A DNA stretch of 64,000 nucleotides from Oscillospiraceae bacterium (lineage in GTDB: Bacteria; Bacillota; Clostridia; Oscillospirales; Oscillospiraceae): contig JAEEZZ010000139.1 in the NCBI GenBank assembly GCA_016292255.1, positions 171-64,170 on the forward strand. Reading direction: 5' to 3'. A model generated the notes under the pieces. That model did not search any database and was not told the DNA's origin. It saw nothing but the letters and a program-made list of their open reading frames with translations. Positions 4,835-27,346 of this stretch are shown piece after piece; the stretch's first letter is position 1, and the number at the start of each line of letters is the position of its first letter. Made by a program: the position numbers and the translations under genes.

Positions 4835-4849
4835 TCGGGAAAAGCCTCG

Positions 4850-5065: not shown

Positions 5066-5127
5066 TTCAGATTCCTCCTTTCTGCCTTTCGGCGTTTTTC
5101 AACATTCGGATCGGCCTGCAAAAAAGA

Positions 5128-6610: not shown

Positions 6611-6613
6611 GAC

Positions 6614-9084: not shown

Positions 9085-9086
9085 GC

Positions 9087-9947: not shown

Positions 9948-9948
9948 A

Positions 9949-12015: not shown

Positions 12016-12115
12016 ATGGAACCTCCAGTCAAAACGCACCAATACCGGTTTTACAACAGAGGGACACCAGCTCATTTCTAAGAAACCGAGCAGTTGCCCC
12101 TCTGTTTTTACTTAC

Positions 12116-12604: not shown

Positions 12605-12809
12605 TGCTTTTTTTATGATACAAGATACCTCCTTTATGCGTGTATTGTTTTGCAGCCTGCGCTTCGCGATGCGTAGGCCAAACTACCGAATGACATCCCG
12701 GATGTCCTTGATTATTTTAGCACAATTTAATATATATGTCAATCCAATATATTGATTTTTTGTTTATATGTGATATAACTATAAATGAAAAAAGTTAGGA
12801 GGTGCAGCA

Positions 12810-13160
12810 GTGGTAGAGGCAAGCCATTCTTTTTCAGCATACTATAAGCGTGCGGTTAGTCCGCTGCTTGTACTGGCCATGCTGCGGGAGCGACCAATGT
12901 ATGGGTACGAGATTTCTTCCAGAATCTCGGCACAGAGCGGCGGGGCGCTGGCTCTGTCCGTTCTCTATCCGGTGTTGTTCCGGCTTCAGGAGCAGGAATT
13001 CATTGCGGAGGATTCCTGCGTCATTGTGGACGGAAGAGCGCGAAGCTATTATCGGATTACGGAAAGCGGCACGGAATACCTGAAAAAAACCTTGCGGGAA
13101 TACCGAGAGCTTGACCGATTGTTTTCAGACATTACGGGGGAACAAGACCATGAAAAATGA
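12810..13160 (+). CDS. PadR-family transcriptional regulator
   Basis: 116-aa ORF with a GTG start 7 nt after AGGAGG. LLVLAMLRERPMYGYEISSRI...VLYPVLFRLQEQEFI...RSYYRITESGTEYL is a canonical PadR winged helix. Confidence 0.9.
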   Translation: MVEASHSFSAYYKRAVSPLLVLAMLRERPMYGYEISSRISAQSGGALALSVLYPVLFRLQEQEFIAEDSCVIVDGRARSYYRITESGTEYLKKTLREYRELDRLFSDITGEQDHEK

Positions 13161-13563
13161 CAAGATTGTGCACTATTGCAAGCAAGTTGGACAGCGAATA
13201 CTATGCGGCAAAGAACACAGGAAAGCACTGCTTGCTGGGTTGAAGGACGAGTTGCTCGAGCGGGAATTGCCAGACACAATCTCCATGAAGGGGTTGTATG
13301 AGCAAATAGGCACCCCTGAAGTTGTCGCGGCGCAACTCCAGGCTTCCCTGGAGCCTGGAGAAATCCGAACTGAACAGAAGCGAAGAAAACGCAGACATGT
13401 GGTTGCTGCGGCAATCACGTTTGCAGTTCTTTGTGTTGCTTTTGCCCTTGCCGTTCATTTTATCAACTCCCATGAGCCGAAGTTTGTTAAGACTTATATT
13501 ATTTATGGAGATGATTATGATGACCCGAATACTACTTGGTATTCAACAGAACAAAAACCGTAG
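13150..13563 (+). CDS. Membrane protein downstream of PadR (DUF1700/HAAS-like position)
   Basis: I used the start MKNDKIVHYCKQVG (ATG at 13150, overlapping the PadR stop). It has a soluble helical N-terminus, a KRRKRR stop-transfer and one TM (VVAAAITFAVLCVAFALAV). The family assignment rests on position and architecture only. Confidence 0.55.
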   Translation: MKNDKIVHYCKQVGQRILCGKEHRKALLAGLKDELLERELPDTISMKGLYEQIGTPEVVAAQLQASLEPGEIRTEQKRRKRRHVVAAAITFAVLCVAFALAVHFINSHEPKFVKTYIIYGDDYDDPNTTWYSTEQKP

Positions 13564-13576
13564 GAGGATGCAAAAA

Positions 13577-14032
13577 ATGAAACGAATGTTGATTATCTTG
13601 GTTTGTATTAACTTGATTGTCAGTCTTTTCCCGACAAGCGTGAACGCAGAGACGCCGACTAATTCGGAAAGTGTTGCAATTACCTACTTTGAGGACGGGA
13701 GCTACTGTATTACAACGATTACTGTTGTGCAGCACATTTTGGACAGGGCGACAATTACTGGAACCAAAACAAATCAATACTACGATTCTAATGATGTAGC
13801 GCAATTTTCTGTCTCAGTTAAGGGAACATTCACTTATGACGGTACTACCGCAACAGCGACAACCGCTTACTACAGTTATCAAGTGTTCAATAGTTTTTGG
13901 CCTTTTGTATCAGGCAATGCTTCCTGCTCTGGTAATACAGCAACAGCATCCTGCACATTTGCTCTTTTGGGTGTCCTGAATCGGACGCTTTCTGTCTCTC
14001 TAACCTGCTCTCCAACAGGTGTTTTGAGCTGA
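13577..14032 (+). CDS. Small secreted Thr/Ser-rich beta protein of unknown function
   Basis: I used the start MKRMLIILVCINLIVSLFPTSVNA (ATG at 13577, 9 nt after AGGAGG). It has a clear signal peptide and Cys residues in the mature part. I recognise no family. Confidence 0.6.
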   Translation: MKRMLIILVCINLIVSLFPTSVNAETPTNSESVAITYFEDGSYCITTITVVQHILDRATITGTKTNQYYDSNDVAQFSVSVKGTFTYDGTTATATTAYYSYQVFNSFWPFVSGNASCSGNTATASCTFALLGVLNRTLSVSLTCSPTGVLS

Positions 14033-14058
14033 TTCAACTGCGGAACAATAAATAATAT

Positions 14059-14098
14059 GTTAGCGTCGGGTGAAAGGTTAGAATCACCCGACGCTAAC
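14059..14098. terminator. Strong hairpin between convergent genes (likely a bidirectional terminator)
   Basis: Perfect 15-bp stem GTTAGCGTCGGGTGA (14059-14073) / TCACCCGACGCTAAC (14084-14098). An A/T-rich tract on the left gives a U-run for minus-strand transcripts. Confidence 0.6.
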
Positions 14099-14152
14099 AG
14101 TACGGATCATTTACCGTTTACTCGTTGGGTTTTCACTTCATTTTATCTGTGT

Positions 14153-14452
14153 TTACGCGTTTACGAAATCACTCAAAACAAATTCTTCGACGCGGTTGCG
14201 GATAGAATTCATGCGGCGCGTCCATTCGAGGTTATCTGCTGCTTTGAGCGCTTCTGTGACGCCCTCGATCTCTGCGTACTGACGGACAAGCATCTCATAG
14301 CTTTCCTGCGCGTCGCGGTCAAGATCAGTCAGATACTGTTCCAGCGTTCCCTTTATTCGCATGACGTTGATAACAGCGGGGCTGTGCTTCTTCAGATAAT
14401 TGTAATGGCGCTGTCCCCAAACGCCGATCTTGCTGATGAATTCGTCTTTCAT
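14153..14452 (-). CDS. TnpV-family transposon-associated protein
   Basis: 99-aa ORF. IGVWGQRHYNYLKKHSP...GTLEQYLTDLDRDAQ...AEIEGVTEALKAADNLEWTRRMNSIRNRVEEFVL matches the TnpV pattern I recall (...GVTEALKAADQMxWVxxMNNIRxRAEE...). Confidence 0.8.
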   Translation of the reverse strand: MKDEFISKIGVWGQRHYNYLKKHSPAVINVMRIKGTLEQYLTDLDRDAQESYEMLVRQYAEIEGVTEALKAADNLEWTRRMNSIRNRVEEFVLSDFVNA

Positions 14453-14643
14453 TTTGAACCCTCCATAACCTTGATTTTCTTGGTCGGCGCTTCAATGAGC
14501 TTGAGCAGGATCTCATTGATGAAATCCACATATCCGCCCTCGTCGATGACCAACTTGCGGTATTCGTTGATCACGTTGACCAACTCTTTCCATTCGTAGT
14601 AGTCCAGAGCAAGGTACCGTTTTTCTTGCTTCTTGTATCTCAT
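14449..14643 (-). CDS. Small hypothetical protein upstream of TnpV
   Basis: 64 aa from the internal ATG at 14643, preceded by GGGAGG. It overlaps the tnpV start by 4 nt. The longer 120-aa version in the track has a Cys/His-rich, non-protein-like N-terminus. Confidence 0.5.
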   Translation of the reverse strand: MRYKKQEKRYLALDYYEWKELVNVINEYRKLVIDEGGYVDFINEILLKLIEAPTKKIKVMEGSK

Positions 14644-14876
14644 AGCGTCTCCGCCTCCCTTCGCCGTTACTGTATAACAGAACGGCGGAAAACAAAAATG
14701 TGCGTTTTGGCAGCAATGGTGCGATGAATATGTACATTCAGCTCCGTTAAAACAACGATTTATCAAGTCCGTTATCAATATTCGCACCACGTCGGAAGAA
14801 TGCTGCTCCATTCCGTTTCCGCAGATTCCTTACAGAACTGCGAAAACTCCATATCCGCAGCATCCCTCCTCCTTCT

Positions 14877-14922
14877 CCCCACGCGACCCGCTCCGCTGGG
14901 CTCGCGTGGGGTCCCCTTTTTC
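14877..14922 (+). terminator. Orphan terminator-like hairpin (plus orientation)
   Basis: CCCCACGCGA (14877-14886) / TCGCGTGGGG (14902-14911), followed by TCCCCTTTTTCC. No plus-strand gene ends just upstream. Confidence 0.4.
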
Positions 14923-15073
14923 CTGCGCTGACAGTTGGCAGCTTTTTCCACAACCTGTGCATATCGGGTATCCATGCTCAATGATATTTTTCCCGAAGAA
15001 ATAGCCTGCATTTTCCGGAAGATTTTGTAAAATAGAAAACGTCGCGCATTGAAGCTTACACTTTTTTCGGTGA

Positions 15074-15245
15074 GGAAATCACTGCGTGATCTCCAAGGAA
15101 TTTGAATGGGCTCTGTTCTTCGACCGGAACCAGGGCAGCTTTGGCCTGATTCCCTACAACACTGCGGATTACGACGACCTCAGATTCTCCTTCTGGCAGC
15201 CCAAGCCCTTTACCAACATCTACTTCACGGAGCTTCCCGAATGAG
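15074..15245 (+). pseudogene. GC-rich orphan 3-prime gene fragment (about 56 codons, no convincing start)
   Basis: The open frame ...VISKEFEWALFFDRNQGSFGLIPYNTADYDDLRFSFWQPKPFTNIYFTELPE ends at TGA (15243-15245). Its chromosome-like GC contrasts with the AT-rich DNA to its left. A stop lies in frame at 15071-15073. A canonical terminator follows about 40 bp downstream. Confidence 0.3.
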
Positions 15246-15283
15246 ACGGAATCGGGAATAAATTTCTATGCTATGCAAATAAA

Positions 15284-15320
15284 AGAAAATCGCCGGAAAC
15301 GGCGATTTTCTTTTATTTTC
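15284..15320 (+). terminator. Rho-independent terminator
   Basis: AGAAAATCGCCG (15284-15295), GAAA loop, CGGCGATTTTCT (15300-15311), then TTTTATTTTC. Confidence 0.65.
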
Positions 15321-15392
15321 TTCTTGAAAAAGCTTTGCTTTTGCATTTTTTTGTTATATAATAACAGAAGGATCATGATGGGAGGCAATTTC

Positions 15393-16049
15393 ATGGACTA
15401 CAAGCAGAGTGTGACGATGAATCCCTCCGGCTTTGTGGTGCTGGCGGATTTTGTGCCCAGCATCGTGCAGGAGATCCGTTATCATTCTTCCTACAATTTC
15501 ATCGGAGAGCGCATCGACGGCTACGAGGAACCCGTCGCGCTGCTGACGAAGGAGGCGGCCCGGGCGCTCAAATCCGTGGCCGGGGAGCTGATCGTCCAGG
15601 GCTACCGGCTCAAGGTGTTCGACGCCTACCGCCCGGCCTGCGCGGTGAAGCACTTCGTCCTCTGGGGCATCGAGGACCAGGACGTCCGCATGAAGCCCTA
15701 CTTCTATCCGGAGCTGGAGAAGCAGGAGCTGTTTGCAAAGGGCTATATCGCCAAGCAGTCCAGCCACAGCCGCGGCAGCGCGGTGGATCTGACGCTGCTG
15801 GATATGAAAACCGGCAAGGAAGTGGACATGGGCAGCCCCTTCGACCTGTTCAGCGAGGCCTCCCACCCGGATTACAGAGGCATCACCGACGAACAGTACG
15901 AGAACCGGATGCGCCTGCAGCGGGTGATGCTCCGCAACGGCTTTCAGCCCATCGATTGCGAGTGGTGGCACTTCGCCCTGGCCGACGAGCCCTACCCGGA
16001 CACCTACTTTGCCTTCCCGGTGTCCTCAGGATACCTTCGCAGATCCTGA
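15393..16049 (+). CDS. D-alanyl-D-alanine dipeptidase (VanX/DdpX family, peptidase M15D)
   Basis: I used the start MDYKQSV (ATG at 15393, after GGGAGG). The zinc-site motifs SSHSRGSAVDLTL and EWWHF are present, and the length is typical of VanX. Confidence 0.9.
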   Translation: MDYKQSVTMNPSGFVVLADFVPSIVQEIRYHSSYNFIGERIDGYEEPVALLTKEAARALKSVAGELIVQGYRLKVFDAYRPACAVKHFVLWGIEDQDVRMKPYFYPELEKQELFAKGYIAKQSSHSRGSAVDLTLLDMKTGKEVDMGSPFDLFSEASHPDYRGITDEQYENRMRLQRVMLRNGFQPIDCEWWHFALADEPYPDTYFAFPVSSGYLRRS

Positions 16050-16104
16050 ACAAGTGAAACAGATTCCGAGAAACAGAAAATACATTCAGAAGTGAGGAAA
16101 AGCT

Positions 16105-16404
16105 ATGCTGAACATCAACAAAACCGTGGAAAACAATACCGCCGCCGTTTCTCTGGAGGGACGGCTGGACACCGTCACCGCGCCGGAGCTGGAGAAGGCT
16201 CTGATGGAGCTCATACCCGATCTGACGGAGCTGAAGCTGGATTTTACCGACCTGGACTACATCTCCTCGGCCGGCCTGCGGGTGCTGCTGGCTGCCCAGA
16301 AGGCGATGAACAAGCAGGGCAGCATGACGCTGACCCATGTCAATGAGGCTGTGATGGAGATCCTGGAGGTCACCGGCTTTACCGACATTCTGACGATCCG
16401 ATGA
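16105..16404 (+). CDS. STAS-domain anti-sigma-factor antagonist (SpoIIAA/RsbV-like)
   Basis: 99-aa ORF. LDFTDLDYISSAGLRVLL carries the conserved phosphorylatable Ser context, and the C-terminus is EILEVTGFTDIL. Confidence 0.9.
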   Translation: MLNINKTVENNTAAVSLEGRLDTVTAPELEKALMELIPDLTELKLDFTDLDYISSAGLRVLLAAQKAMNKQGSMTLTHVNEAVMEILEVTGFTDILTIR

Positions 16405-18563
16405 AGATCATAAAGGGGATCAAGATCGGGGGCCTGCAGCAGAAGATATTCAATCTCATGCTGTTCTTCCTGATTGCGCTGATCGGCGCGTTCCTGGCCA
16501 TTTCCGCCTACCAGCAGAAGAATCTGACCCGCACGGTGCAGGACGCGAACGACAGGCAGCAGAAGTCCATCGAGGCTGTTTCCGAGGAGACGATGCTGGC
16601 GGTGCTGAACAGCACCATGACCCAGACCACCGAGCTGCAGGCCTATATCGCGGACGACCTGTTCTCCCAGGTCCGCTCCGATGTGCTGACGCTGCAGACC
16701 TTTGCCACGGAGCTGTTCACCCATTCGGAGAGCTTCAATGACCATCCCATCGAGCCTCCGTCGGCGCAAAACGACGGGACGCCCACAGCGCAGCTCATCC
16801 ATGAGCAGGGGGTGGATCCGTCCCAGTCTCAGACCCTGGGCCTGGTAGCCCATATGAGCGAGATCATGGTGGCCATGTATGAATCCACCAACACCATCAG
16901 CAGCGTCTACGTGGCCACTGCCGACGGGAACATGGTCCTTGTGAACGACCGCCCCGGCACCTTCATCGGGGACGACGGAGCGGTCCTGACGCTGGACATC
17001 CGTCATCGCCCCTGGTATACCCAGGCGGTGGAGGCCGGGGAGCTGATCTTCACAGGGGTGGAGATGGACGCCTATACCAGCACGCCCATGCTGGTCTGCG
17101 CTGCACCGGTCTATGACGGCGGGAAGCTTGTAGCTGTGGTCGCCGCGGATATCTACCTCACCTCGATCAACGATTACGTGGCCGGCAAGGCCTCCGAGGG
17201 CAGCTTCGTCTGCGTGATCAACGGCAGCGGGCAGATGCTGTTTTCTCCGAAGCAGGAGGGCAGCTTCCGCGTGGAGCTCGCCGCCGACGCCCCCGATCTG
17301 CGAGAGAGCAAAAACCAACAGCTTGCGGCCTTCGTCCGCTCTGCCATGGAGGCCAACACCGGGCTCCGCCTGGTGGAGGTGGACGGGGAATCCTATTATA
17401 TGTGCGGCGCGCCCATGAAGACAGTGGGCTGGACGGCCGTCTCGGTGGTGGATCGGGAGATCACCCGGCAGCCCACCACCGCGCTGCTGAGCAACTATGA
17501 CCGCATCAACGGGGAAGCCCTGTCCACGTTCGAGGACGGCGCGAAGAACTCGGTGCGGACGCTGGTGGTGCTGCTGTCCGTGATCTGCCTGCTGGCGATC
17601 GGCGCTGCGCTGCTGATCGCCTCCAAGGTGGTGCGGCCCATCGAGCATATGACGAAGCGCATCAACGCCCTGAGCGGCAGCGACGGGGTGTTTGAGATGG
17701 AGCCCATCTATCGCACGAAGGATGAGATCGAGGTGCTGGCCGAATCCTTTGCGACCCTGTCCAAGCGGACGAGGGACTACATCACCCAGATCACCCAGAT
17801 CACCGCCGAGAAGGAACGGATCAGCACGGAGCTTTCCCTGGCGACCAAGATCCAGGCGTCCATGCTGCCCAGCATATTCCCGCCCTATCCGGATCGCCCG
17901 GAGTTCGACCTCTTTGCCTCCATGGATCCTGCCAAGGAGGTGGGCGGCGACTTCTATGATTTCTTCCTGGTGGATGACGACCACCTCTGCGTCGTGATCG
18001 CCGACGTCTCCGGCAAGGGTGTTCCCGCGGCCCTGTTTATGATGGCCTCCAAGATCATCCTGCAGAGCTGCGCCATGCTGGGCCAGCAGCCGGCGGAGAT
18101 CCTGACGAAAACCAACGAGGCGATCTGCTCCAATAACCCGGAGAGTATGTTTGTGACGGCCTGGGTGGGCATTCTGGAGATCTCCACCGGCAAGCTGACT
18201 GCCGCCAACGCCGGCCACGAATACCCGATCCTCAAAGCGCCCAACGGCGATTTCGAGGTGTATAAAGACCGCCACGGCCTTGTGATCGGCGGCATGGCGG
18301 GGCTCAGATACCGCCAATATGAGCTGACCATGGAGCCGGGCTCCAAGCTCTTCCTCTACACGGACGGCGTCCCCGAGGCGACGGACGCAAAGCAGCAGCT
18401 TTTCGGCCTGGATCGAACCGTCGCAGCACTGAATGAAGCCAAAAACGAGACGCCCAGGCAGACGCTGAAAACAGTTCGCCGGAAGGTGGACGAGTTCGTG
18501 GAGGACGCCGAGCAGTTCGACGATCTCACCATGCTATGCCTGGAGTATAAGGGAAAGGAATAG
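16401..18563 (+). CDS. Membrane sensor PP2C phosphatase (TM, dCache-like domain, TM, HAMP, SpoIIE/RsbU-type PP2C)
   Basis: 720-aa ORF that overlaps the STAS stop by 4 nt. It has an extracytoplasmic Cache-like region (YVATADGNMVLVND...RPWYTQAVE...), a HAMP domain (VVRPIEHMTKRINALS...) and PP2C motifs (ELSLATKIQASMLP...VGGDFYDFF...VIADVSGKGVPAALFM...TDGVPEA). Confidence 0.9.
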   Translation: MKIIKGIKIGGLQQKIFNLMLFFLIALIGAFLAISAYQQKNLTRTVQDANDRQQKSIEAVSEETMLAVLNSTMTQTTELQAYIADDLFSQVRSDVLTLQTFATELFTHSESFNDHPIEPPSAQNDGTPTAQLIHEQGVDPSQSQTLGLVAHMSEIMVAMYESTNTISSVYVATADGNMVLVNDRPGTFIGDDGAVLTLDIRHRPWYTQAVEAGELIFTGVEMDAYTSTPMLVCAAPVYDGGKLVAVVAADIYLTSINDYVAGKASEGSFVCVINGSGQMLFSPKQEGSFRVELAADAPDLRESKNQQLAAFVRSAMEANTGLRLVEVDGESYYMCGAPMKTVGWTAVSVVDREITRQPTTALLSNYDRINGEALSTFEDGAKNSVRTLVVLLSVICLLAIGAALLIASKVVRPIEHMTKRINALSGSDGVFEMEPIYRTKDEIEVLAESFATLSKRTRDYITQITQITAEKERISTELSLATKIQASMLPSIFPPYPDRPEFDLFASMDPAKEVGGDFYDFFLVDDDHLCVVIADVSGKGVPAALFMMASKIILQSCAMLGQQPAEILTKTNEAICSNNPESMFVTAWVGILEISTGKLTAANAGHEYPILKAPNGDFEVYKDRHGLVIGGMAGLRYRQYELTMEPGSKLFLYTDGVPEATDAKQQLFGLDRTVAALNEAKNETPRQTLKTVRRKVDEFVEDAEQFDDLTMLCLEYKGKE

Positions 18564-18569
18564 AACGCT

Positions 18570-20117
18570 ATGACAGTTCAACTCAAGGGACGGATCGACT
18601 CCTCCAACGCGGCCCGGATGGAGCAGGAGCTCCTGCAGCAGGTGAACGGACAGAGCGAGGTCGTGCTGGACGCGGCGGAGCTCGCGTATATCTCCAGCGC
18701 CGGCCTGCGCGTCATTCTGCGGATCCGGAAGGATCACCCCACGCTGCGTATCGTCAACGTCAATGCCGACGTGTATGAGATCCTGGACATGACCGGCTTT
18801 ACCGACATGATGTCGGTGGAGAAGGCCTACCGGGTGGTCTCCGTAGAGGGCTGCGAGGAGATCGGCCACGGAGCCAACGGCACCATCTACCGCATCGACA
18901 GGGACAACGTGGTCAAGGTCTACAATAACCCCGAGGCGCTGGAGGATATCCAGCACGAGCGGGAGGTGGCCAAGCTGGCCCTGATCCTGGGGATCCCCAC
19001 GGCCATTTCCTACGACGTGGTCAAGGTGGGGGACAGCTACGGCTCCGTGTTTGAGCTGCTCAACGCCAGCTCCTTCGCCGAGATCCTGGCAAAGGAGCCG
19101 GAAAAGCTGGATTGGTGCGTGGCGGAATACGTGAAAATGCTCCGGCTGATCCACGATACGCCGGTTCCCGCCGGGAAGCTCCCGGACGTGAAGGAAACGG
19201 CGATGAGCTGGGTGACGTATTTGCAGAACTATTTGCCCCAGAGCGCCTGGGACAAGCTGGTGTCGCTGGTGGAGGCTGTGCCCCACGACGACCACATGAT
19301 CCACGGGGACTACCATACCAAGAACCTGGAGCTGCAAAACGGCGAGGTCCTGCTCATCGACATGGACACCCTTGCGGTGGGCAATCCCATCTTCGAGCTG
19401 GCGTCCATGTACAACTCCTTTGTGGGCTTCTATGAGATCGACCATGATGCCATCAAGCAATTCCAGGGCTATGACTGGGAGACCGGCCGGAGCTTCTGGC
19501 GCAAATCCCTTGCGGCCTATCTGGACACCCAATGCCAGGCAAAGATCAAAGAGGTGGAAGACAAGGCCCGCGTGCTGGGATATTCCCGTTTGCTCCGCCG
19601 CGCCATCCGCCTCGGCGGCCTGGACGACGAGAAGAAACGGGCAGAGATCGAGCTCTGGAGATCAGAGCTGCTGGAGCTGCTGGAAAAGACGGATACGCTG
19701 ATGTTCGACCGGAACGAGCTGGAGCTTGAGGCGGTCAAGGAGAATCTGGATGACGTGATCGCCTTTCTGGAGGAGCGGCTCGCAGGCACCAACTGTACCC
19801 CGAAGGCGCTGATGCAGATCAATCTGGCTGTGGAGGAGATCTTCGTCAACATTGCCAGCTACGCCTACAGGCCGGAGACCGGCAAGGCCACGGTGCGCTT
19901 CGAGGTCTCGGAGGAACCGGTCACAGTTACGATCACCTTCCTGGATCACGGGGTCCCCTATGACCCGCTGGCAAGGCAGGATCCGGACGTGACCCTCCCC
20001 GCGGAGGAGCGGGACATCGGCGGCCTGGGCATCTTCCTGACCAAGCAGATCATGGACGATGTGAGCTACGAATACTGCCGCGGGCAGAACATCCTGCGGA
20101 TCAAGAAAACCGTGTAA
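18570..20117 (+). CDS. Three-domain fusion: STAS domain, APH/choline-kinase-like phosphotransferase domain, and RsbW/SpoIIAB-like HATPase_c domain
   Basis: 515-aa ORF. The N-terminal STAS has AELAYISSAGLRVIL...YEILDMTGFTDMM. The middle has a kinase-fold Gly loop plus Lys (IGHGANGTIYRI...VVKVY) and a Brenner motif IHGDYHTKNL plus IDMD. The C-terminus has an N-box-like LAVEEIFVNIASYAY, a G1-like FLDHGVPYDP and a G2-like GGLGIFLTKQIMDDVSY. Confidence 0.85.
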   Translation: MTVQLKGRIDSSNAARMEQELLQQVNGQSEVVLDAAELAYISSAGLRVILRIRKDHPTLRIVNVNADVYEILDMTGFTDMMSVEKAYRVVSVEGCEEIGHGANGTIYRIDRDNVVKVYNNPEALEDIQHEREVAKLALILGIPTAISYDVVKVGDSYGSVFELLNASSFAEILAKEPEKLDWCVAEYVKMLRLIHDTPVPAGKLPDVKETAMSWVTYLQNYLPQSAWDKLVSLVEAVPHDDHMIHGDYHTKNLELQNGEVLLIDMDTLAVGNPIFELASMYNSFVGFYEIDHDAIKQFQGYDWETGRSFWRKSLAAYLDTQCQAKIKEVEDKARVLGYSRLLRRAIRLGGLDDEKKRAEIELWRSELLELLEKTDTLMFDRNELELEAVKENLDDVIAFLEERLAGTNCTPKALMQINLAVEEIFVNIASYAYRPETGKATVRFEVSEEPVTVTITFLDHGVPYDPLARQDPDVTLPAEERDIGGLGIFLTKQIMDDVSYEYCRGQNILRIKKTV

Positions 20118-20136
20118 TATCCGGGAGGCTGGGAGC

Positions 20137-21108
20137 ATGAAACACAAAACGCTGAAAACACTTCTTGTGGCGGGGATCATTTTGGCCTGGATGCTGAGCT
20201 TCGCCGCCTGCACGGACGCCAAAACAAGCGCCGAAACCACCAAGGCGACAAAGCACGAGGCATCGCCGTCGGAGACGGAAGCCCAGAAGCTCCAGGCGCA
20301 GCTTGCCCAGCTGGAGCGGGAGCTTTCCGACGTGAAGGCGGAGCGGGATACGCTCCAAACCCGGCTGCAGGAATGCGAGGGCAAGCTCACCCAGACCCAG
20401 AGCGACCTGGCGGAGGCCAATGCGGCCCTGGAGGAGCTGGCGGATACCGCCGTGACGATGGAGGAGCTGACCGCCGAATACAAGTGCTACAAGAACGTCA
20501 TTTCCCAGGAGGAGGTCAGGAAGACCCTGTTCGGCCAGCCCATCTCCGAGGAGCGCAGCGGCGAATACCGCATCGGCATCGAGACGGCCATCGACGGGGA
20601 TTTTCATGCCAAGCTGACGGTCTATCAGGCCCAGGGCGGCAAATACGTGGAGGTCTTCTCCTGCGATGCCGTGGTGGGCAAAAACGGCCCCGGCAAGCAG
20701 TCTGAGGGCGATACCAAAACGCCCCTCGGCACCTGGACGGTGGGCGAGGCCTATGGCATCAAGGAGGATCCGGGCAGCCTGCTGCCCTACACCCAGGTCA
20801 CCGACGATATGTACTGGTGCGCCACCGGCTCCAACGGCAAAAAGTATAATACCCTGATCTACAAGAGCGACGACCCGGACAACGACTACAGCGAGGACGA
20901 GCATCTGGCGGACTATACCGTTCCGTATGCCTACCTCCTGGATCTGGGATACAACGCTTCCTGCGCGCCGTACGCGGGCAACGCGATCTTCCTGCACTGC
21001 TGGAAGGGGCCGGACTACCCCACCGGCGGCTGTGTGGGTGTTTCCGAGGAAAGCATGATCAAGATCCTCCAGACCATCACTCCCGGCACCTCCGTGACGA
21101 TCTACTGA
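20137..21108 (+). CDS. Lipoprotein L,D-transpeptidase (YkuD/ErfK family) with an N-terminal coiled coil
   Basis: 323-aa ORF with a lipobox (LSFAAC). The coiled coil is roughly aa 45-110. The C-terminal catalytic region has GKNGPGKQSEGDTKTPLGTW...IFLHCWKGPDYPTGGCVGV (an H...GC motif). Confidence 0.8.
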   Translation: MKHKTLKTLLVAGIILAWMLSFAACTDAKTSAETTKATKHEASPSETEAQKLQAQLAQLERELSDVKAERDTLQTRLQECEGKLTQTQSDLAEANAALEELADTAVTMEELTAEYKCYKNVISQEEVRKTLFGQPISEERSGEYRIGIETAIDGDFHAKLTVYQAQGGKYVEVFSCDAVVGKNGPGKQSEGDTKTPLGTWTVGEAYGIKEDPGSLLPYTQVTDDMYWCATGSNGKKYNTLIYKSDDPDNDYSEDEHLADYTVPYAYLLDLGYNASCAPYAGNAIFLHCWKGPDYPTGGCVGVSEESMIKILQTITPGTSVTIY

Positions 21109-21137
21109 CGAGATAATACGAGATAAGAGGTAATACG

Positions 21138-22007
21138 GTGCGGATCCCGACTAAGATTGATTTGCATACCCATTCCACGGTCTCCGACGGCACCGATACG
21201 CCGGAGGCGCTGCTGCAGTGCGCCCGTGCGGCCGGGCTGGAGCTGTTTTCCCTCACCGACCATGACGCGATCAAGGGCTGTGAGCAGATCCAGGCGCTGC
21301 GGGGGGCGGACGATCCGCGCTTCCTCCCCGGCGTGGAGTTTTCCTGCAGGGATGAAGAAGGGAAATACCATATCCTCGGCTATGGGTATGACGCGAAAAC
21401 AGAGGCGATCCGATCCACGGTGGCCCACGGCCACAGCATCCGGATGCGTAAGCTCCGGATGCGGCTGGACTATCTGAAGACCCAGTTCGGCTTTGCCTTC
21501 CCGGAAGCGGAGCTGGAAGCGCTCCTGGCGCTGGACAATCCGGGCAAGCCCCACATCGGCAATCTGATGGTGAAGCACGGCTTTGCCCCCACGAAGGAGA
21601 TCGCCATCAAGGACTATCTGGATCAGCTTCGGATCCGTTCGGAGTACATCCGCCCCGAGGAGGCCATTGCCGGCATCCTGGGCAGCGGCGGTATCCCGGT
21701 GCTGGCCCACCCCTGCTACGGCAGCGGGGATGAGCTGATCCTCGGGCCGGCGCTGGAGGAGAGAGTCAAAAAGCTGATGGCCTTCGGCCTGCAGGGCGTG
21801 GAGGCGTTCTACTCCGGCTTTTCCGAAAAGCTCCGGGCGGAGCTGCTTGCCCTGGCGGAGCGCTGCGGGCTCTACGTCACCGCCGGCAGCGACTACCACG
21901 GCACGAATAAGCTCGTTCCCCTGGGCTTCACCGGCCTGGAACCGAAGATGGAGCTCGTAGACGGTATGCGCCGTTTTCTGGAGCGTGTGAGCGGCGCGCC
22001 GGGTTAG
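21138..22007 (+). CDS. PHP-domain metal-dependent phosphoesterase (TrpH/YciV-like)
   Basis: 289-aa ORF with a GTG start. IDLHTHSTVSDGTDTPEAL...LTDHDAIKG...GIPVLAHP...GSDYHG are PHP motifs. Confidence 0.85.
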   Translation: MRIPTKIDLHTHSTVSDGTDTPEALLQCARAAGLELFSLTDHDAIKGCEQIQALRGADDPRFLPGVEFSCRDEEGKYHILGYGYDAKTEAIRSTVAHGHSIRMRKLRMRLDYLKTQFGFAFPEAELEALLALDNPGKPHIGNLMVKHGFAPTKEIAIKDYLDQLRIRSEYIRPEEAIAGILGSGGIPVLAHPCYGSGDELILGPALEERVKKLMAFGLQGVEAFYSGFSEKLRAELLALAERCGLYVTAGSDYHGTNKLVPLGFTGLEPKMELVDGMRRFLERVSGAPG

Positions 22008-22074
22008 CCCTTCGCCGTCCCTCGCCGCTGCAGGCTTCCCCACGACACCGAACGACGCGCAGGAGGAGAGAACA

Positions 22075-23604
22075 ATGTTTGAAAGCATCTTGTCACGTTC
22101 CGATATGATCCGCTGTGTGCTCTGCCAGGACGCGCCCTGCAGCTCCGCCTGCACCCGGCTCGACCCTGCCGCGCTGCTGCGGGGCATCTGGTTTCGCAAT
22201 GACAAGACGGCGGCGCTCAGGCTCCCGGAGTCCGACTGCTGCCGGGGCTGTGACGCGCCCTGCGAGGCAGCCTGCGTCCGGCCCCATGAGGTTCCGATCC
22301 AAGGCTTGATGCTGCGGCTTCGGGAGGAACTGCGCCCCAGGCTGGAGCTGCCCCTTCCGGAGGACGAAGGTCTCCTTCGCACGGAGCTCTGCGGCGTTCC
22401 GCTGGAGAACCCCTTCCTGCTTTCCTCCTCGGTGGTTGCCAGCACCTACGATATGTGCGCCAGGGCCTTCGAGGCGGGCTGGGCAGGCGCTTGCTTCAAA
22501 ACCATTTGCTCCTTTGAGATCCATGAGGCTTCGCCGCGATTCTCCGCCATCACCGGGGACAACGGCAGCATCATCGGCTTCAAGAATATCGAGCAGCTCT
22601 CCGACCACAGCGTTGCGGAGAACATGATTATTTTCCGCCGTCTGAAGCAGAACTATCCCACCAAATTCATTCTGGCCTCCATTATGGGGCAGAACGACGC
22701 CGAGTGGGAGGAGCTGGCGCGCCAATGCGAACAAAGCGGCGCGGACGCCATTGAGCTGAACTTCTCCTGCCCCAATATGGCGGACGGGGGCCTGGGCTCG
22801 GATATCGGCCAGGTCCCGGAGCTGGTGGAGCGCTTCACCGCCGCAGCCCGGCGGGGGACAAAGCTGCCGATCCTTGCAAAGCTGACGCCAAACGTGGCCT
22901 CCATGCTCCCCGCAGGGGAGGCTGCCCGGCGCGGCGGCGCAGACGGGCTCGCGGCCATCAATACCATCAAAAGCATCACCGGGATCAATCCCCATACCTA
23001 CGTCTCCGCGCCTGCGGTGCACGGGATGTCAGCCGTGGGCGGCTACAGCGGAAACGCGGTGAAGCCCATTGCTCTGCGCTTTCTGGCGGAGCTGGGGCAG
23101 GATCCCGCCCTGGCCGGAATGCATATCAGCGGCATGGGCGGGGTGGAGACCTGGCGGGATGCCCTGGACTTCATTCTCCTGGGTGCGGGAAGCATCCAGG
23201 TCACCACGGCTGTCATGCAGTACGGCTACCGGATCATAGAGGATCTGAAGGCCGGCTTGAATTACTATCTGGCGGAGAAGGGCTTCCGAAGCGTAAAGGA
23301 GGCCGTGGGCCTGGCGCTGAGCACCGTCAGCGAGACGACGGACGTCCTGGAGCGGGATACCGTTGTTTTGCCGAAATTCCTGCGGGAAAAATGCGTCGGC
23401 TGCGGCCGCTGCGCCATCTCCTGCGCGGACGGCGGCCACCAGGCCATCCGTCTGAACGGGGAGCGGAGGCCGATGCTCAACGGCAAACGCTGCGTCGGCT
23501 GCCATCTGTGTGTGTTGGTGTGCCCCCAGAACGCGATCCGTCCCGGCAGAAAGCGGATCACAAAGCCGAAGACGGAAGAGAACTCTGACAGGGAAGTGAA
23601 CTGA
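22075..23604 (+). CDS. Dihydroorotate/dihydropyrimidine dehydrogenase-like flavoprotein (PreA-like) with a C-terminal 2x[4Fe-4S] ferredoxin domain and an extra N-terminal Cys-rich segment
   Basis: 509-aa ORF. It has a TIM-barrel core (LENPFLLSSSV...IELNFSCPNM...GGVETWRDALDFILLGA) and a C-terminal CxxCxxCxxxC motif twice (CVGCGRCAISC, CVGCHLCVLVCP). The N-terminus has CVLCQDAPCSSAC and CCRGCDAPCEAAC. Confidence 0.8.
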   Translation: MFESILSRSDMIRCVLCQDAPCSSACTRLDPAALLRGIWFRNDKTAALRLPESDCCRGCDAPCEAACVRPHEVPIQGLMLRLREELRPRLELPLPEDEGLLRTELCGVPLENPFLLSSSVVASTYDMCARAFEAGWAGACFKTICSFEIHEASPRFSAITGDNGSIIGFKNIEQLSDHSVAENMIIFRRLKQNYPTKFILASIMGQNDAEWEELARQCEQSGADAIELNFSCPNMADGGLGSDIGQVPELVERFTAAARRGTKLPILAKLTPNVASMLPAGEAARRGGADGLAAINTIKSITGINPHTYVSAPAVHGMSAVGGYSGNAVKPIALRFLAELGQDPALAGMHISGMGGVETWRDALDFILLGAGSIQVTTAVMQYGYRIIEDLKAGLNYYLAEKGFRSVKEAVGLALSTVSETTDVLERDTVVLPKFLREKCVGCGRCAISCADGGHQAIRLNGERRPMLNGKRCVGCHLCVLVCPQNAIRPGRKRITKPKTEENSDREVN

Positions 23605-23605
23605 G

Positions 23606-25360
23606 ATGATAAAAAAGCTGTTCCGGCAGATGCTGGTGACCCAGATCGTTTCCTCCATGACCGTGACCCTTTGTATGCTGATCGACAGTATCATGATCGG
23701 CCGCTTTCTCGGGGTGGATGCCATGAGCGCCTACGGGCTGGCAAGCCCGCTGCTGTTGGTCTTTGCCGCCTTCGGCAGTCTGATCTCCTCGGGCGTGCAG
23801 GTCATGTGCGGAAAGACCGTCGGCGCGGGGGACCGGGAGGCCACCGACGCCTGCTACACGGTGTCTGTGCTGCTGGCAGCCGGGATCTCCGCAGTGGGTC
23901 TGATCCTGGTGTTCCTGTTCCTGGGCCCGCTGACGAGCCTGCTGGGCGCGGGGGAGCCCGGCCCGAACAACCCGGTCTTCGGGCTGACCAAGGACTATAT
24001 CACCGGCTTTATCATCGGCGCGCCCGCATTCCTTTGCGCCCAGATCATGGTGCCCTATATGCAGCTGCTGGGCAGCCGTACCAGGCTTGTGGCGGCAGTG
24101 ATCGCCATGACCGCGGCGGACATCGCCCTGGATCTTCTGAACGTGTTCGTATTCGAGGGCGGGACGCTGGGCATGGGCCTGGCCTCCACCGTGAGCTATT
24201 ACATTGCCGTTGGGGTGGGCGCAGGCGTCTTCCTGCGTAAGGACTGTATGTTCCGCCTCCGGCCCCGGCTGTTTCAGCGGAAGGTATGTCGGGAGCTGGC
24301 CTCCTACGGCGTTCCCACGGTGGTGAATCAGATCAGCATGGTGTTCCTGGTATTCCTGCTGAACCGTCTGCTTCTGAGCGTGGAGGGGACGGTTGCGGTC
24401 GCCGCCTATTCCGTGATCTCCACAGTGGGCAATATCTGCTATTGCTTCGGCTCCGGCACGGGCTCGGTGGCCATGATGCTGGCGGCGATCTTCTATGCGG
24501 ATCGGGACAGAACCTCCATCCGGGAGCTGGTGCGGGTCATGACCCGCAGCGCCGTGGTGCTGGATGTGGCCGTTACGGTGGTGGGTCTGCTGGCCGCCAC
24601 GCCGCTGATCACCCTGTTCCTGGGCCAGGACGTGGGCGCGAAAGCCATCGCGGTCTTCGGTCTGCGGCTGTTTGTGCTGTCCATCCTGCCCTCCTCGCTG
24701 AACTCCACCTTCAAGAACTACTACCAGGGTGTCAACCGCCTGCGGCTCACGGAGCTGATTTCCGTCCTGCAGAACTTCGTCTACCCGGTGGCCTTTGCCT
24801 ATCTGCTCAGCCGTTTCCTCGGCGTGACCGGCATCTGGCTCGGCTTCGTCTGCGGCGAGACGGCCACGCTTCTCAGCTTCTCCGTCCTGGTCTGGCGGCA
24901 TCATGGCGGCTTCTCCCTGTCCGCCGATGCCTACAGTATGCTGGATCCGACCTTCGGCGCCGCGCCGGAGCAGTGCTTCGAGCGCACGATCCAGTCTGCG
25001 GAGGAGGCGGTAGAGGCCTCCGAGCAGATCTGCGCGTTCTGCAGATCCCGGGAGATCGACCGGAAAACCGCCATGCTGATCGGCCTGAGCGTGGAGGAAA
25101 TGACAGTCAACATCATTGAGCACGGCTTCACCAAGGACAGCCGGGAGCACAACGTAGACGTCCGCCTGGTGCTGGAGCAGGACAGCCGGGTCATCCGCAT
25201 CCGGGATAACTGCGTCAGCTTCGACCCGACCAAGTATCTGGAGCTGCATCATTCCGACGACCCTGCCGCCCACATCGGCCTGCGTATGGTGATGGGCATG
25301 ACGAAGGAAGCCTTTTATATCAACACCCTTGGCCTGAACAATCTGACGCTGACAATGTAA
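23606..25360 (+). CDS. MATE-family efflux transporter fused to a C-terminal RsbW/SpoIIAB-like HATPase_c domain (G1 box degenerate)
   Basis: 584-aa ORF whose ATG is 1 nt after the PreA-like stop. About 12 TMs with MATE-like repeats fill aa 1-435. The C-terminal 146 aa or so (24920-25357) has an N-box LSVEEMTVNIIEHGF, a G1 position reading IRDNCVSFDP (no Gly) and a G2-like HIGLRMVMGMTKEAFY. Confidence 0.8.
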   Translation: MIKKLFRQMLVTQIVSSMTVTLCMLIDSIMIGRFLGVDAMSAYGLASPLLLVFAAFGSLISSGVQVMCGKTVGAGDREATDACYTVSVLLAAGISAVGLILVFLFLGPLTSLLGAGEPGPNNPVFGLTKDYITGFIIGAPAFLCAQIMVPYMQLLGSRTRLVAAVIAMTAADIALDLLNVFVFEGGTLGMGLASTVSYYIAVGVGAGVFLRKDCMFRLRPRLFQRKVCRELASYGVPTVVNQISMVFLVFLLNRLLLSVEGTVAVAAYSVISTVGNICYCFGSGTGSVAMMLAAIFYADRDRTSIRELVRVMTRSAVVLDVAVTVVGLLAATPLITLFLGQDVGAKAIAVFGLRLFVLSILPSSLNSTFKNYYQGVNRLRLTELISVLQNFVYPVAFAYLLSRFLGVTGIWLGFVCGETATLLSFSVLVWRHHGGFSLSADAYSMLDPTFGAAPEQCFERTIQSAEEAVEASEQICAFCRSREIDRKTAMLIGLSVEEMTVNIIEHGFTKDSREHNVDVRLVLEQDSRVIRIRDNCVSFDPTKYLELHHSDDPAAHIGLRMVMGMTKEAFYINTLGLNNLTLTM

Positions 25361-25414
25361 GAAGCGGTCGGAACGCACCATCGAAAATAATCCGAAAGAA
25401 AGAGAGGGATCGGT

Positions 25415-27346
25415 ATGAAAGAGATCTATTTTCATATTTGCGCCATCCCTCTGTTCACTATGATCCTGATCGTCTGCTATTCCAGAAAGATGACCAAGGG
25501 AAACGCCAATCGCCTCTTCCTTGCGATGACCGTACTGTCGCTGATCAGCACTGTGGCGGATCTGATCATGGTGATTCTGTCCTATCAGCTGCCTTTGACC
25601 GACGCAGAGCGCTTGCTGGATGAGGTGCTGGGCTACGTCTACCTTTCCCTCCACAACCTTACAAACGTTGTAATCCTGCTGTTCCTTCTGTCTCTGACCC
25701 GCATGACCTCGCTGATCCAGAAAAAACGGATCAAGTTCGTCATCAGTCTGCCGTATGTTCTGATCGTCGCTTTTTTGATCCAGAACATCTTTACCCATAC
25801 CATTTTTTCCGTTACGTCTGAGGCAGGATATGCGCGGGGCGTGCTGATGCCGATGATCTACATCATGGCCGCGCTGTACGGCATCGGCGGCCTGGGCTAC
25901 TGCATCTATTCCAAGCGCTTTCTTGCGAAGAACAAGTGGGTTTCTCTGCTGTGTATGTATCTGCTGTCCTATTTCGCTGTTGCGGTCCAGTTTTTCAAGC
26001 CCAAGCTCCTGCTGGAAATGTTCTGCAACGGCCTTGGGATTATGGGCGTCATGCTGTCGGTGATGCGCCCGGAGGAGCGCATGGACAGCATGGTGGGCAT
26101 GGAAAGCTGGAAATCCTACCGGGAGGATCTCCGCAATATCCTTCGCTCCGGCGAGCAGGTGGCCATCGTCGTCATTCGGCTGCCGAATTCCCGGGAGATC
26201 CTCAGCTTCCTGGGGGAGCACAAGTACAACGATTATGTGTCCGAGATCGGAAATGCGCTGCGCGCCCTTCCCTGGAATCACCCGAACCACGTGGAGCTCT
26301 ACTTCGAACGTCCGGGCACGATCTATCTGATCGTGGACAAGGACGAGAAGGAGATGGAGTCGATCGGAGACCGCCTGTATGCGGAGCTTGGGATCCGGCT
26401 GCAGGAATACGCGGCCAACGGCGTTCGCTTCGAGCCGCAGGTGTGCCTGATCCGCTGCCCGGATGATCTGAAGAAGGCGGAGGACATCATCAGCCTGGGC
26501 CATATGTTCTATACCTTCGACAGCGGCAGGGAGAACACCTTCCAGGCAAAGGAGCTCGTTTCCTCCCGGGTCTTTGCCATCCGCTCGCACATGGAGGAGA
26601 TCCTCAAACGCGCCATCCAGGAACAGAATATCGTGATGCACTACCAGCCGATCTACGACGTCCGTACGGGCTGCTTCCACTCTGCGGAGGCCCTGGCCCG
26701 CATTGTGGATCCGGAATTCGGTCTGATCTCTCCCGGCATCTTTATTCCCGCGTCGGAGGAGCTGGGCCTGATCGTCCACATCGGCGACGAGGTGCTGGAG
26801 CAGGTGTTCCGCTTTATTTCCGAGCATGACCTGGAGGCCCTGGGGCTGGAATACATAGAGATCAACCTGTCCGTGGCCCAGTGTATGCAGAGCGTGCTTC
26901 CGGAAAAGATCCGTCATTTGCAGCAAAAATACAACGTAGATCCGCGCCATGTCAATCTGGAGATCACCGAAACGACCTTTGAGAACATCAGCGAGGTGGT
27001 GATGGAGAATGTCCATGAGCTGATCCGCATGGGCTATACCTTCGCGCTGGACGATTATGGCATTGGATATTCCAGCATCCAGCGGGTCAATCATTTCCCG
27101 CTGAAGCTGATCAAAATCGATAAGAGTATGCTGGACGAGGTCTCCTCCAGAAACGGGCGGATGATCCTGGAGCATACGGTGCATATGATGCGGAGCATTG
27201 AGAAGCAGCTCGTGGTGGAGGGCGCGGAGACCCGTGTCGCCGTGGATCTGCTGAAGAAAATGGACTGCGATTATATCCAGGGCTACTATTTCTCCCGGCC
27301 GCTTCCCGCAGAGGACTTTGTCCGCTTCCTGGAAGAACACAAATAA
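25415..27346 (+). CDS. Membrane EAL-domain protein (polytopic N-terminus, degenerate GGDEF-like linker domain, EAL c-di-GMP phosphodiesterase)
   Basis: 643-aa ORF with about 7 TMs at the N-terminus. EAL motifs are YQPIYD...SAEALARI...EITET...ALDDYGIGYSS...KIDKS...VVEGAETR...QGYYFSRP. No GGDEF signature occurs in the middle domain. Confidence 0.85.
   Translation: MKEIYFHICAIPLFTMILIVCYSRKMTKGNANRLFLAMTVLSLISTVADLIMVILSYQLPLTDAERLLDEVLGYVYLSLHNLTNVVILLFLLSLTRMTSLIQKKRIKFVISLPYVLIVAFLIQNIFTHTIFSVTSEAGYARGVLMPMIYIMAALYGIGGLGYCIYSKRFLAKNKWVSLLCMYLLSYFAVAVQFFKPKLLLEMFCNGLGIMGVMLSVMRPEERMDSMVGMESWKSYREDLRNILRSGEQVAIVVIRLPNSREILSFLGEHKYNDYVSEIGNALRALPWNHPNHVELYFERPGTIYLIVDKDEKEMESIGDRLYAELGIRLQEYAANGVRFEPQVCLIRCPDDLKKAEDIISLGHMFYTFDSGRENTFQAKELVSSRVFAIRSHMEEILKRAIQEQNIVMHYQPIYDVRTGCFHSAEALARIVDPEFGLISPGIFIPASEELGLIVHIGDEVLEQVFRFISEHDLEALGLEYIEINLSVAQCMQSVLPEKIRHLQQKYNVDPRHVNLEITETTFENISEVVMENVHELIRMGYTFALDDYGIGYSSIQRVNHFPLKLIKIDKSMLDEVSSRNGRMILEHTVHMMRSIEKQLVVEGAETRVAVDLLKKMDCDYIQGYYFSRPLPAEDFVRFLEEHK

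Follow-up and report, generated by a model that had tools for sequence, protein, structure and literature searches.

Partner switching is textbook sigma-factor control, as in the SpoIIAA/SpoIIAB/SpoIIE and RsbV/RsbW/RsbU systems of Bacillus. Non-canonical STAS systems have also been described, among them Vibrio fischeri SypA/SypE, Bordetella BtrU/V/W and Rhodobacter RbaV/W (reviewed in PMC8256260). Direct control of an enzyme by partner-switch parts has only just been shown, for one cyanobacterial glycosyltransferase: in Anabaena PCC 7120, phosphorylation of Ser74 by the Ser kinase Alr3423 inhibits the STAS-glycosyltransferase All4160, and the SpoIIE-type phosphatase HenR reactivates it (PMC13555669). 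The authors, who picked Alr3423 among five candidate serine kinases of the Anabaena genome, describe a switch whose direct target is a biosynthetic enzyme, and call the STAS-sugar-transferase architecture cyanobacteria-specific (PMC13555669). Here we describe a module built from similar parts in a 64,000-nt stretch of DNA from an Oscillospiraceae bacterium (assembly GCA_016292255.1, contig JAEEZZ010000139.1, positions 171 to 64,170 of the forward strand; this whole stretch is referred to as the window, and position 1 is its first letter). Its three genes encode a free STAS protein, a sensor phosphatase of the SpoIIE/PP2C type, and a 515-aa fusion protein that consists of a second STAS domain, an APH-family kinase and an RsbW-like domain. 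We propose, with a probability of roughly 0.55, that this is a sigma-independent partner-switching module with an enzyme as its regulated output.

Taken as an analogue, the HenR/Alr3423/All4160 system is the direct experimental precedent for enzyme switching. The module shares with it an enzyme that carries an N-terminal STAS domain, a PP2C of the SpoIIE type and a Ser kinase that would both act on the conserved STAS Ser, and the lack of a sigma output. It differs in that the enzyme is an APH-family kinase rather than a sugar transferase, in that the Ser kinase is fused in cis, and in that a free STAS paralogue and a co-conserved phosphohydrolase gene are added, in a Clostridia host; moreover, the window phosphatase has a transmembrane dCache sensor, whereas HenR has a receiver domain. 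With the Bacillus systems the module has in common the three protein families, the phospho-Ser position and the tight gene packing, but it is without a sigma factor, its RsbW domain lies inside a larger enzyme, and it has two STAS paralogues. SypA/SypE, BtrUVW and RbaVW likewise combine STAS, Ser kinase and PP2C logic with an output other than a linked sigma factor. In those systems the output is the free STAS protein itself, with a target that is undefined or transcriptional, whereas here the proposed output is an enzyme; they have no APH-family kinase, no partner of the PHP or small alarmone hydrolase (SAH) type, and no transporter-RsbW fusion. The principle is not new: sigma-less STAS systems (SypA/SypE, BtrUVW, RbaVW and MlaB) and a STAS-fused enzyme switch are known. 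What is new, being absent from the literature searched, is the STAS-APH kinase family itself, the fusion with RsbW in cis, the presence of a second, free STAS, a conserved partner of the SAH or PHP type, and the RsbW-like tails of transporters.

The fusion protein, the free STAS protein and the sensor phosphatase

The domain content, catalytic motifs, gene order and conservation of the module, and the absence of a sigma factor, are established. An initial annotation of the window had recognized the 515-aa protein as a fusion with an RsbW-like domain, which stands, but had not spelled out the N-terminal STAS domain and the APH-family kinase (Table 1). In 80 homologues with 70-84% identity, the key residues of all three domains are invariant. 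These are the STAS motif YISSAGLR, in which Ser43 occupies the position of SpoIIAA S58 and RsbV S56; the Gly-rich loop GxGANG, Lys116, Glu130, HGDYHTKN (with Asp247 and Asn252) and IDMD (with Asp264 and Asp266) of the kinase; and the N box (E422, E423, N427), G1 box (D459-H-G461) and G2 box (G484-G-L-G487) of the RsbW-like domain. The catalytic motifs are also invariant across both subfamilies. The AlphaFold2 (AF2) model of the fusion is compact and confident (pLDDT 87.6, pTM 0.80).

The kinase domain matches Pfam APH with 54.5 bits against a cut-off of 23.2, and its APH-type active site is intact by these motifs and predicted to be catalytic. Foldseek comparison to the PDB places the kinase core nearest to small-molecule kinases, namely APH(2''), APH(4), the amicoumacin kinase AmiN, the capreomycin kinase Cph, a choline-kinase-like protein and MTR kinase, with an E value of 1e-9 to APH(2'') and identities of 12-17%, and thus none of its characterised relatives is close; by sequence, hygromycin-B kinase is the sole solved kinase that is matched. 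The domain has the fold and all catalytic residues of the APH/choline-kinase-like small-molecule kinases of PF01636, which include the uncharacterised TIGR02172 paralogues, and is related to the latter family rather than a member of it (90.1 bits against a cut-off of 228.2). The solved members of PF01636 differ from it in their low identity to it, in that it is joined to STAS and RsbW domains, and in that its putative substrate helix is basic: residues K332, R340, R343, R344 and R347 of the C-terminal helix are conserved in both subfamilies. Aminoglycoside kinases use acidic pockets; the basic helix would fit an anionic rather than an aminoglycoside-like substrate, but is not decisive.

The free STAS protein matches Pfam STAS (1e-15) and TIGR00377 (3.6e-21, above the cut-off), and is 40% identical to the tethered STAS domain (E value 5e-21), with the YISSAGLRV phospho-site and C-terminal TGFTD motifs common to both. 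Ser55 of the free protein, within DYISSAGLRV, is aligned to RsbV Ser56 and SpoIIAA Ser58. Both STAS domains are nearest to SpoIIAA/RsbV, and both align to RsbV and SpoIIAA-family structures.

In the phosphatase, the matches to dCache_1 (1.8e-19) and SpoIIE/PP2C (1.9e-51) are strong, HAMP (5.8e-4) falls under the Pfam cut-off, and the PP2C motifs GGDFYD, DVSGKG, TDG and DD are all present. The Cache domain is flanked by hydrophobic segments (residues 12-39 and 381-414), and therefore the sensor is predicted to be extracytoplasmic. The STAS and phosphatase genes overlap by 4 nt, and 6 nt separate the phosphatase gene from the fusion gene. Thus, the gene set of the SpoIIAA/SpoIIE/SpoIIAB type that the initial annotation proposed is borne out by Pfam and NCBIfam models for STAS, PP2C and RsbW-like domains, with the key motifs in place; the models confirm dCache_1 as well, and leave HAMP below threshold. 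The annotation had also read the extracytoplasmic dCache sensor as implying an external small-molecule signal. The sensor itself holds and a small-molecule input is plausible in the window's lineage, but this is no family trait: the dCache sensor is lineage-specific, and the PP2C proteins of relatives are shorter (for example, 541 aa with HAMP alone and without Cache in L006, one of the related loci surveyed below).

Distribution of the fusion and its linkage to phosphohydrolases

The three-domain architecture was found in all top 120 matches among more than 8000 scored clusters at 90% identity; with thousands of protein clusters that share it, a chance arrangement can be set aside. The fusion is present in at least 568 species-representative genomes, with identities of 65-76%. 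Among the matches listed, the carriers are almost all metagenome-assembled genomes (MAGs) from rumen or gut, and belong to Oscillospiraceae, Ruminococcaceae, Lachnospiraceae, Mogibacterium/Anaerovoracaceae, Solobacterium and one Spirochaetales bin. We noted that the fusions in the Spirochaetales, Solobacterium and Mogibacterium bins (L037, L085, L065/L074/L075/L082 and others) are 65-70% identical to that of the window. This is unusually high for lineages so far apart, and points to horizontal transfer among members of the rumen community, to very strong constraint or to mis-binning.

The neighbourhood of the fusion was surveyed at 83 loci, with up to 10 kb of flank per side, by clustering of six-frame open reading frames (ORFs) with shadow filtering, a procedure that may overlook divergent neighbours. 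A free STAS gene lies within 4 kb of the fusion at 62 of the 83 loci, either adjoining it or with the PP2C gene between. The most conserved non-STAS neighbour is a PHP phosphoesterase gene (49 loci), followed by the PP2C gene (42 loci), which is usually directly upstream. Genes for a transmembrane (TM)-DUF218 protein (20 loci), a MatE-RsbW-like transporter (16 loci), Peptidase_M15 (14 loci) and an SDF symporter (8 loci) are also found, and the consensus order is STAS-[PP2C]-[MatE-W or SDF]-fusion-PHP-[DUF218]-[MatE-W]-[M15]. A further cluster of proteins, c44, of about 200 aa, with the motif LHLRLLTEEM and no Pfam match, lies inside the module in six loci (L027:8484-9071, L057:2486-3121, L061:4159-4731, L068:8514-9116, L080:4389-5003 and L085:11571-12092); the idea that c44 is another RsbW-like domain was dropped, based on hhalign probabilities of 1-6%.

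Phosphohydrolases of non-homologous folds interchange at one gene position. In the 79 loci in which the slot directly after the fusion could be evaluated, it is occupied by PHP in 37, by HD_4 in five (L041, L056, L061, L083 and L086, from all of which PHP is absent), and in one locus each by a Cof-type HAD phosphatase (L006:11631-12413) and a calcineurin-like phosphoesterase of the Metallophos family (L042:2669-3856). The PHP protein of the window has a complete set of metal ligands (DLHTHS, DHD, E67, H78, H191 and D252-x-H254), and matches the structures 3e0f (1e-30), 2yb1 (1.7e-19), the solved example of a 3',5'-nucleoside bisphosphate phosphatase, and the 5'-3' exoribonuclease 7ug9 (1.6e-13). 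In NCBIfam it is matched best by NF041577, the model for 3',5'-nucleoside bisphosphate phosphatase, at 112.6 bits against a cut-off of 400. The HD_4 partner bears the motif HDTVEDT and matches the SAH structure 7qoe (2e-30), Rel hydrolase domains (about 1e-20) and Mesh1 (2e-18); by these matches it is placed in the RelA/SpoT-hydrolase, or SAH, family. Both the HD_4 partner and the window PHP score below the NCBIfam equivalog cut-offs. In the literature searched, no SAH or TrpH/PHP enzyme was found linked to a partner-switching set or to a STAS-APH kinase, and a paper on a Treponema SAH makes no mention of a kinase gene next to it. In one locus each, the fusion is directly followed by a gene for GMP synthase (L015:4967-6592) or for a PNP_UDP_1 nucleoside phosphorylase (L025:1816-2655), an anecdotal link to nucleotide metabolism.

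The kinase is also widespread without the RsbW-like domain. A search of 50%-identity representatives for the fusion, STAS-APH and their relatives yielded at least 809 clusters at E≤1e-30, most of them proteins of about 390 aa that match residues 1-379, which correspond to STAS and APH without RsbW. Of the 150 best-listed representatives, more have this two-domain form than any other, and it accounts for more than 5000 clusters at 90% identity. In three independent contexts an HD_4 gene lies directly upstream of STAS-APH and overlaps its start by 8 nt; one of these contexts adds a 135-aa stand-alone HATPase_c_2 protein and another a free STAS. We surveyed 80 metagenome loci obtained with a two-domain profile and annotated with hidden Markov models (HMMs) from the fusion-locus set, and found three recurrent orders: STAS-PP2C-RsbW-HD4-[STAS-APH], STAS-PP2C-RsbW-[STAS-APH] and [STAS-APH]-RsbW-PHP-DUF218. 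Judged by gene order, the last of these is the unfused precursor of the window's fusion gene, which would unite two genes that lie side by side in relatives, one for a STAS-APH kinase and one for an RsbW-like Ser kinase. The gene directly 5' of STAS-APH is HD_4 in 18, RsbW in six, PP2C in six and STAS in three of 59 evaluable loci. Of the 24 loci whose flanks each reach 2.5 kb or more, RsbW is found in 14, free STAS in 13, PP2C in 10, and HD_4 or PHP in 10. Three loci (L128, L148 and L149) contain two STAS-APH paralogues per contig, in tandem or nearby. PADLOC gave no match for the fusion, STAS, PP2C, PHP, MATE, HD_4, two-domain STAS-APH or stand-alone RsbW proteins; an identity as anti-phage defence or toxin-antitoxin system was dropped because no PADLOC model matched.

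Output of the module and competing explanations

A Sigma70 domain is absent from the precomputed Pfam calls spanning the whole 64-kb window, and jackhmmer with five sigma seeds (SigF, SigB, SigA, RpoE and SigW, as approximate sequences) found no sigma factor among the six-frame ORFs of the window. By jackhmmer on six-frame ORFs of the related loci, 81 of the 83 had no sigma-70-type ORF within 10 kb; the two that did are L077, with a SigA/SigF-like ORF 1.6 kb downstream of the fusion, and L078, with an extracytoplasmic function (ECF) sigma factor 6.9 kb away. The initial annotation had stressed that no sigma gene is linked to the module, and had named a linked sigma factor in related genomes as the finding that would overturn this; such linkage is confined to these two loci. 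Its suggestion that the module controls something other than transcription has likewise gained ground, and we judge that the output is very probably not transcriptional.

Which protein phosphorylates which, in what direction the enzyme is regulated and what type of substrate it uses are inferred. In the scheme that we propose, the RsbW-like domain would bind and phosphorylate the STAS serines, Ser43 of the tethered and Ser55 of the free protein, and the membrane dCache-HAMP-PP2C protein would strip the phosphate from STAS once its extracytoplasmic sensor is triggered. The single RsbW domain would be contested by tethered and free STAS, and the activity of the APH-family kinase would be set by the phosphorylation or binding state of the tethered STAS. 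The kinase would phosphorylate a small molecule, probably anionic, and the co-transcribed phosphohydrolase, a TrpH-like PHP protein here and an HD_4 SAH homologue in many relatives, would undo this reaction. In the window's lineage, free STAS may also dock on the degenerate RsbW-like tail of a MATE transporter.

Several points weigh against this scheme. Nine loci of the Mogibacterium/Anaerovoracaceae type, with the order U32-S-F-c18, have no phosphohydrolase adjoining the fusion, and five of the 24 well-flanked two-domain loci are without any partner gene nearby. PHP/TrpH-like enzymes can have housekeeping roles (pAp phosphatase, 5'-3' nanoRNase), and the PHP linkage might reflect something besides reversal of the kinase reaction. 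In addition, APH-fold enzymes include protein kinases, for example YihE/SrkA.

With respect to the substrate, two of the several hydrolase folds that interchange at the partner position act on 3'-(pyro)phosphorylated nucleotides, which points to a nucleotide, as do the occasional GMP-synthase and nucleoside-phosphorylase neighbours; neither is decisive. A more specific idea is that STAS-APH kinases are a hitherto unrecognised class of synthases of a signalling nucleotide or other phospho-metabolite, in which a ribose hydroxyl of a nucleotide is phosphorylated, an SAH-type HD_4 pyrophosphohydrolase or TrpH-like 3'-phosphatase removes the product, and the partner switch gates synthesis. This alarmone-like reading draws on the interchange of HD_4 and PHP at one position, the overlap of the HD_4 and STAS-APH frames, the same occasional neighbours, and the basic helix in the C-terminal subdomain of the kinase; we consider it improbable, if worth stating.

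Of the alternatives, the one that survives best is that a single free STAS toggles among several RsbW-like domains (those of the fusion, of the MATE protein and, in some relatives, of SDF symporters), so that transport and enzyme activity are parallel outputs. The initial annotation had proposed such a hub, and its claim of a second RsbW-like domain at the C-terminus of the MATE pump proved correct: the tail is homologous to the RsbW domain of the fusion (hhalign probability 97.6%, E value 4e-12), and follows a transporter that is multi-TM to about residue 430 and matches Pfam MatE in two stretches (6e-28, above the cut-off), although TIGR00797 scores 130 bits against a cut-off of 147.4. The MatE plus HATPase_c_2 architecture is itself conserved, as it occurs in all top 120 clusters listed, down to 60% identity, and the gene directly adjoins the fusion in its 16 loci. 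A second kind of transporter-RsbW fusion is suggested, and no more than suggested, by three SDF (sodium:dicarboxylate) symporters encoded between PP2C and the fusion (L020:8325-9971, L023:8248-9933 and L028:8295-9941), which have at their N-terminus an additional cytoplasmic domain, about 150 aa in length, that aligns with RsbW over its full length (hhalign E value 5e-4). Control of transporters by STAS proteins is known, for example in MlaB-MlaF (PMC7367683).

However, 67 of the 83 loci retain STAS and fusion without a MATE gene, and the SDF match has an hhalign probability of just 30%. All 15 MATE tails examined keep the N box (EEMxxNIxxHG), but their G1 (DNCVxFDP) and G2 (HIGLRM) boxes have lost the ATP-lid glycines, which makes kinase activity doubtful; the tail may bind STAS without phosphorylating it. 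Moreover, several partners for one STAS would leave the stronger PHP/HD_4 linkage and the tethered STAS unexplained. We therefore consider this arrangement unlikely as the general one, and the MATE-RsbW-like pump is an accessory, lineage-variable part. In terms of the initial annotation, conservation of the neighbourhood extends to the linkage of STAS, PP2C and fusion without sigma, but not to the MATE gene or to a hub built on it.

We give little credence to an ordinary anti-sigma module, with the STAS proteins as antagonists of the classical kind and the RsbW domain sequestering a sigma factor whose gene lies elsewhere in the genome. In its favour, the N, G1-Asp and G2 boxes of the RsbW-like domain are intact, SpoIIAA/RsbV are the closest relatives of both STAS domains, L077 has its SigA/SigF-like ORF, and the sigma scan covered contig-level MAG data, with unlinked sigma genes outside its scope. 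Nevertheless, sigma genes are missing from the window and from nearly all related loci, the RsbW domain is covalently joined to the STAS-APH enzyme, and in relatives RsbW lies between PP2C and HD_4/STAS-APH, the usual slot of the sigma gene.

Equally slight is the case for an envelope or antibiotic-stress operon, in which the APH domain would phosphorylate antibiotics or precursors of the cell wall and act with the VanX-like, L,D-transpeptidase, DUF218 and MATE proteins, and STAS, PP2C and RsbW would do no more than tune it: the best structural matches are antibiotic kinases, Peptidase_M15 and DUF218 recur as noted above, YkuD is present in the window and one other locus, and a weak Polysacc_synt match puts the transporter in the MOP flippase superfamily, but identity to the antibiotic kinases is only 12-17%, the conserved C-terminal helix is basic, each envelope gene is found in at most one quarter of the loci and PHP/HD_4 is more constant, and 65-76% identity across families is unusual for a resistance gene.

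Genomic setting and significance

Nine co-directional genes on the + strand, from about 15375 to 27346, enclose the module (based on Pfam and NCBIfam gene content), and a convergent malic-enzyme gene bounds the cluster on its 3' side. The contig is of metagenomic origin, with the records JGI 3300041006 and GCA_016295045.1. The features of the cluster are listed in Table 1. The promoter-like element was recognized by visual reading alone, and its weak -35 hexamer is below the reach of the promoter scanner. Rfam, at the gathering threshold, recognised no riboswitch or RNA leader across the window. The YkuD, PreA-like and EAL genes are peculiar to the window's lineage.

Table 1. Features of the gene cluster in the window (nt, window coordinates; aa, residues of the encoded protein)
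Feature	Position	Strand	Evidence and remarks
Terminator-like hairpin, strong	15277..15318	+	19-bp stem then T-run (sequence scan)
Promoter-like TTGCTT-16 nt-TATAAT	15336..15363	+	Just 5' of first gene; read by eye
VanX-like D-Ala-D-Ala dipeptidase (Peptidase_M15)	15375..16049	+	First cluster gene; NF033115 2.2e-60, below equivalog cut-off
Free STAS protein, 99 aa	16105..16404	+	Pfam STAS, TIGR00377
dCache_1-HAMP-SpoIIE/PP2C sensor phosphatase, 720 aa	16401..18563	+	Pfam
Phosphatase TM1	aa 12-39	+	Hydrophobic segment
Phosphatase dCache_1, predicted extracytoplasmic	aa 160-348, nt 16878-17444	+	Pfam
Phosphatase TM2	aa 381-414	+	Hydrophobic segment
Phosphatase HAMP	nt 17613-17774	+	Pfam 5.8e-4, sub-threshold
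Phosphatase PP2C/SpoIIE	aa 525-716, nt 17973-18548	+	Pfam
Fusion protein STAS + APH-family kinase + RsbW-like, 515 aa	18570..20117	+	Pfam
Fusion, N-terminal STAS	aa 2-84, nt 18573..18821	+	Pfam STAS 2.6e-12
Fusion, APH-family kinase core	Pfam aa 95-287, nt 18852..19430; whole domain about aa 88-380	+	Pfam 1.8e-14
Fusion, C-terminal RsbW-like GHKL HATPase_c_2	aa 388-513, nt 19731..20108	+	Pfam 3e-24; RsbW 6m36 7e-5
YkuD L,D-transpeptidase, coiled-coil, membrane-anchored	20137..21108	+	Pfam; lineage-specific, 2/83 loci
PHP phosphoesterase, TrpH/YciV-like	21138..22007	+	Pfam, NCBIfam, structure matches
PreA-like DHO_dh + 2x[4Fe-4S] oxidoreductase (flavin/FeS)	22075..23604	+	Pfam, NCBIfam; 1/83 loci
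MATE/MOP-family transporter with C-terminal HATPase_c_2	23606..25360	+	Pfam
MATE C-terminal RsbW-like domain, cytoplasmic	aa 466-583, nt ~25001-25354	+	HATPase_c_2 1.1e-9
Multi-TM EAL phosphodiesterase	25415..27346	+	Last cluster gene; 1/83 loci, not conserved with module

The EAL protein has about six to seven N-terminal TM segments, and its residues 222-390, which may form a degenerate GGDEF domain, align with the segment ahead of EAL in DosP-type proteins. Two related loci, L007 and L008, have a GGDEF gene a few kb 3' of the fusion.

On its 5' side, the cluster adjoins a region of lower G+C content (positions 1-15250; 0.44-0.55 compared to about 0.62). This region encodes a serine recombinase (10-1725, minus strand), ParB_N (1964-2989), a MobA/MobL relaxase (3084-4748), DUF3847, MacB/YknX and BPD_transp ABC genes, PadR and TnpV. 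The whole resembles a mobilisable element that has integrated here and that ends at the hairpin just 5' of the operon; as read from the sequence, this hairpin terminates the upstream mobile-element region and sets the 5' boundary of the operon.

Further downstream, two giant secreted proteins of about 1109 and 1460 aa with Flg_new repeats, one of which also bears Peptidase_C1 and lectin-like domains, are encoded on the minus strand at 40895-48851; they explain why the GC skew of this segment is so strong (+0.26). A 1266-aa protein encoded at 55390-59193 has a weak SLH-domain match as its sole match, and lies beside a Na/Pi cotransporter-PhoU fusion and a HisKA/response-regulator pair.

The logic shown for the cyanobacterial glycosyltransferase appears here attached to a kinase, in a system that is widespread but unstudied in Clostridia of the rumen and gut. 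Fusions of RsbW-like domains to transporters suggest a device by which STAS proteins could be wired to membrane transport in general. The recurrence of an SAH homologue or a 3'-phosphatase-like PHP protein leads to the hypothesis of a regulated kinase/phosphohydrolase pair that acts on one metabolite, possibly a nucleotide. If this is true, one more signalling output, and perhaps a messenger, would be known from abundant but poorly studied anaerobes; and if the STAS-APH kinases were indeed synthases of such a nucleotide, the module would be a new alarmone-like second-messenger circuit, wired to membrane sensors and common in gut and rumen Firmicutes.

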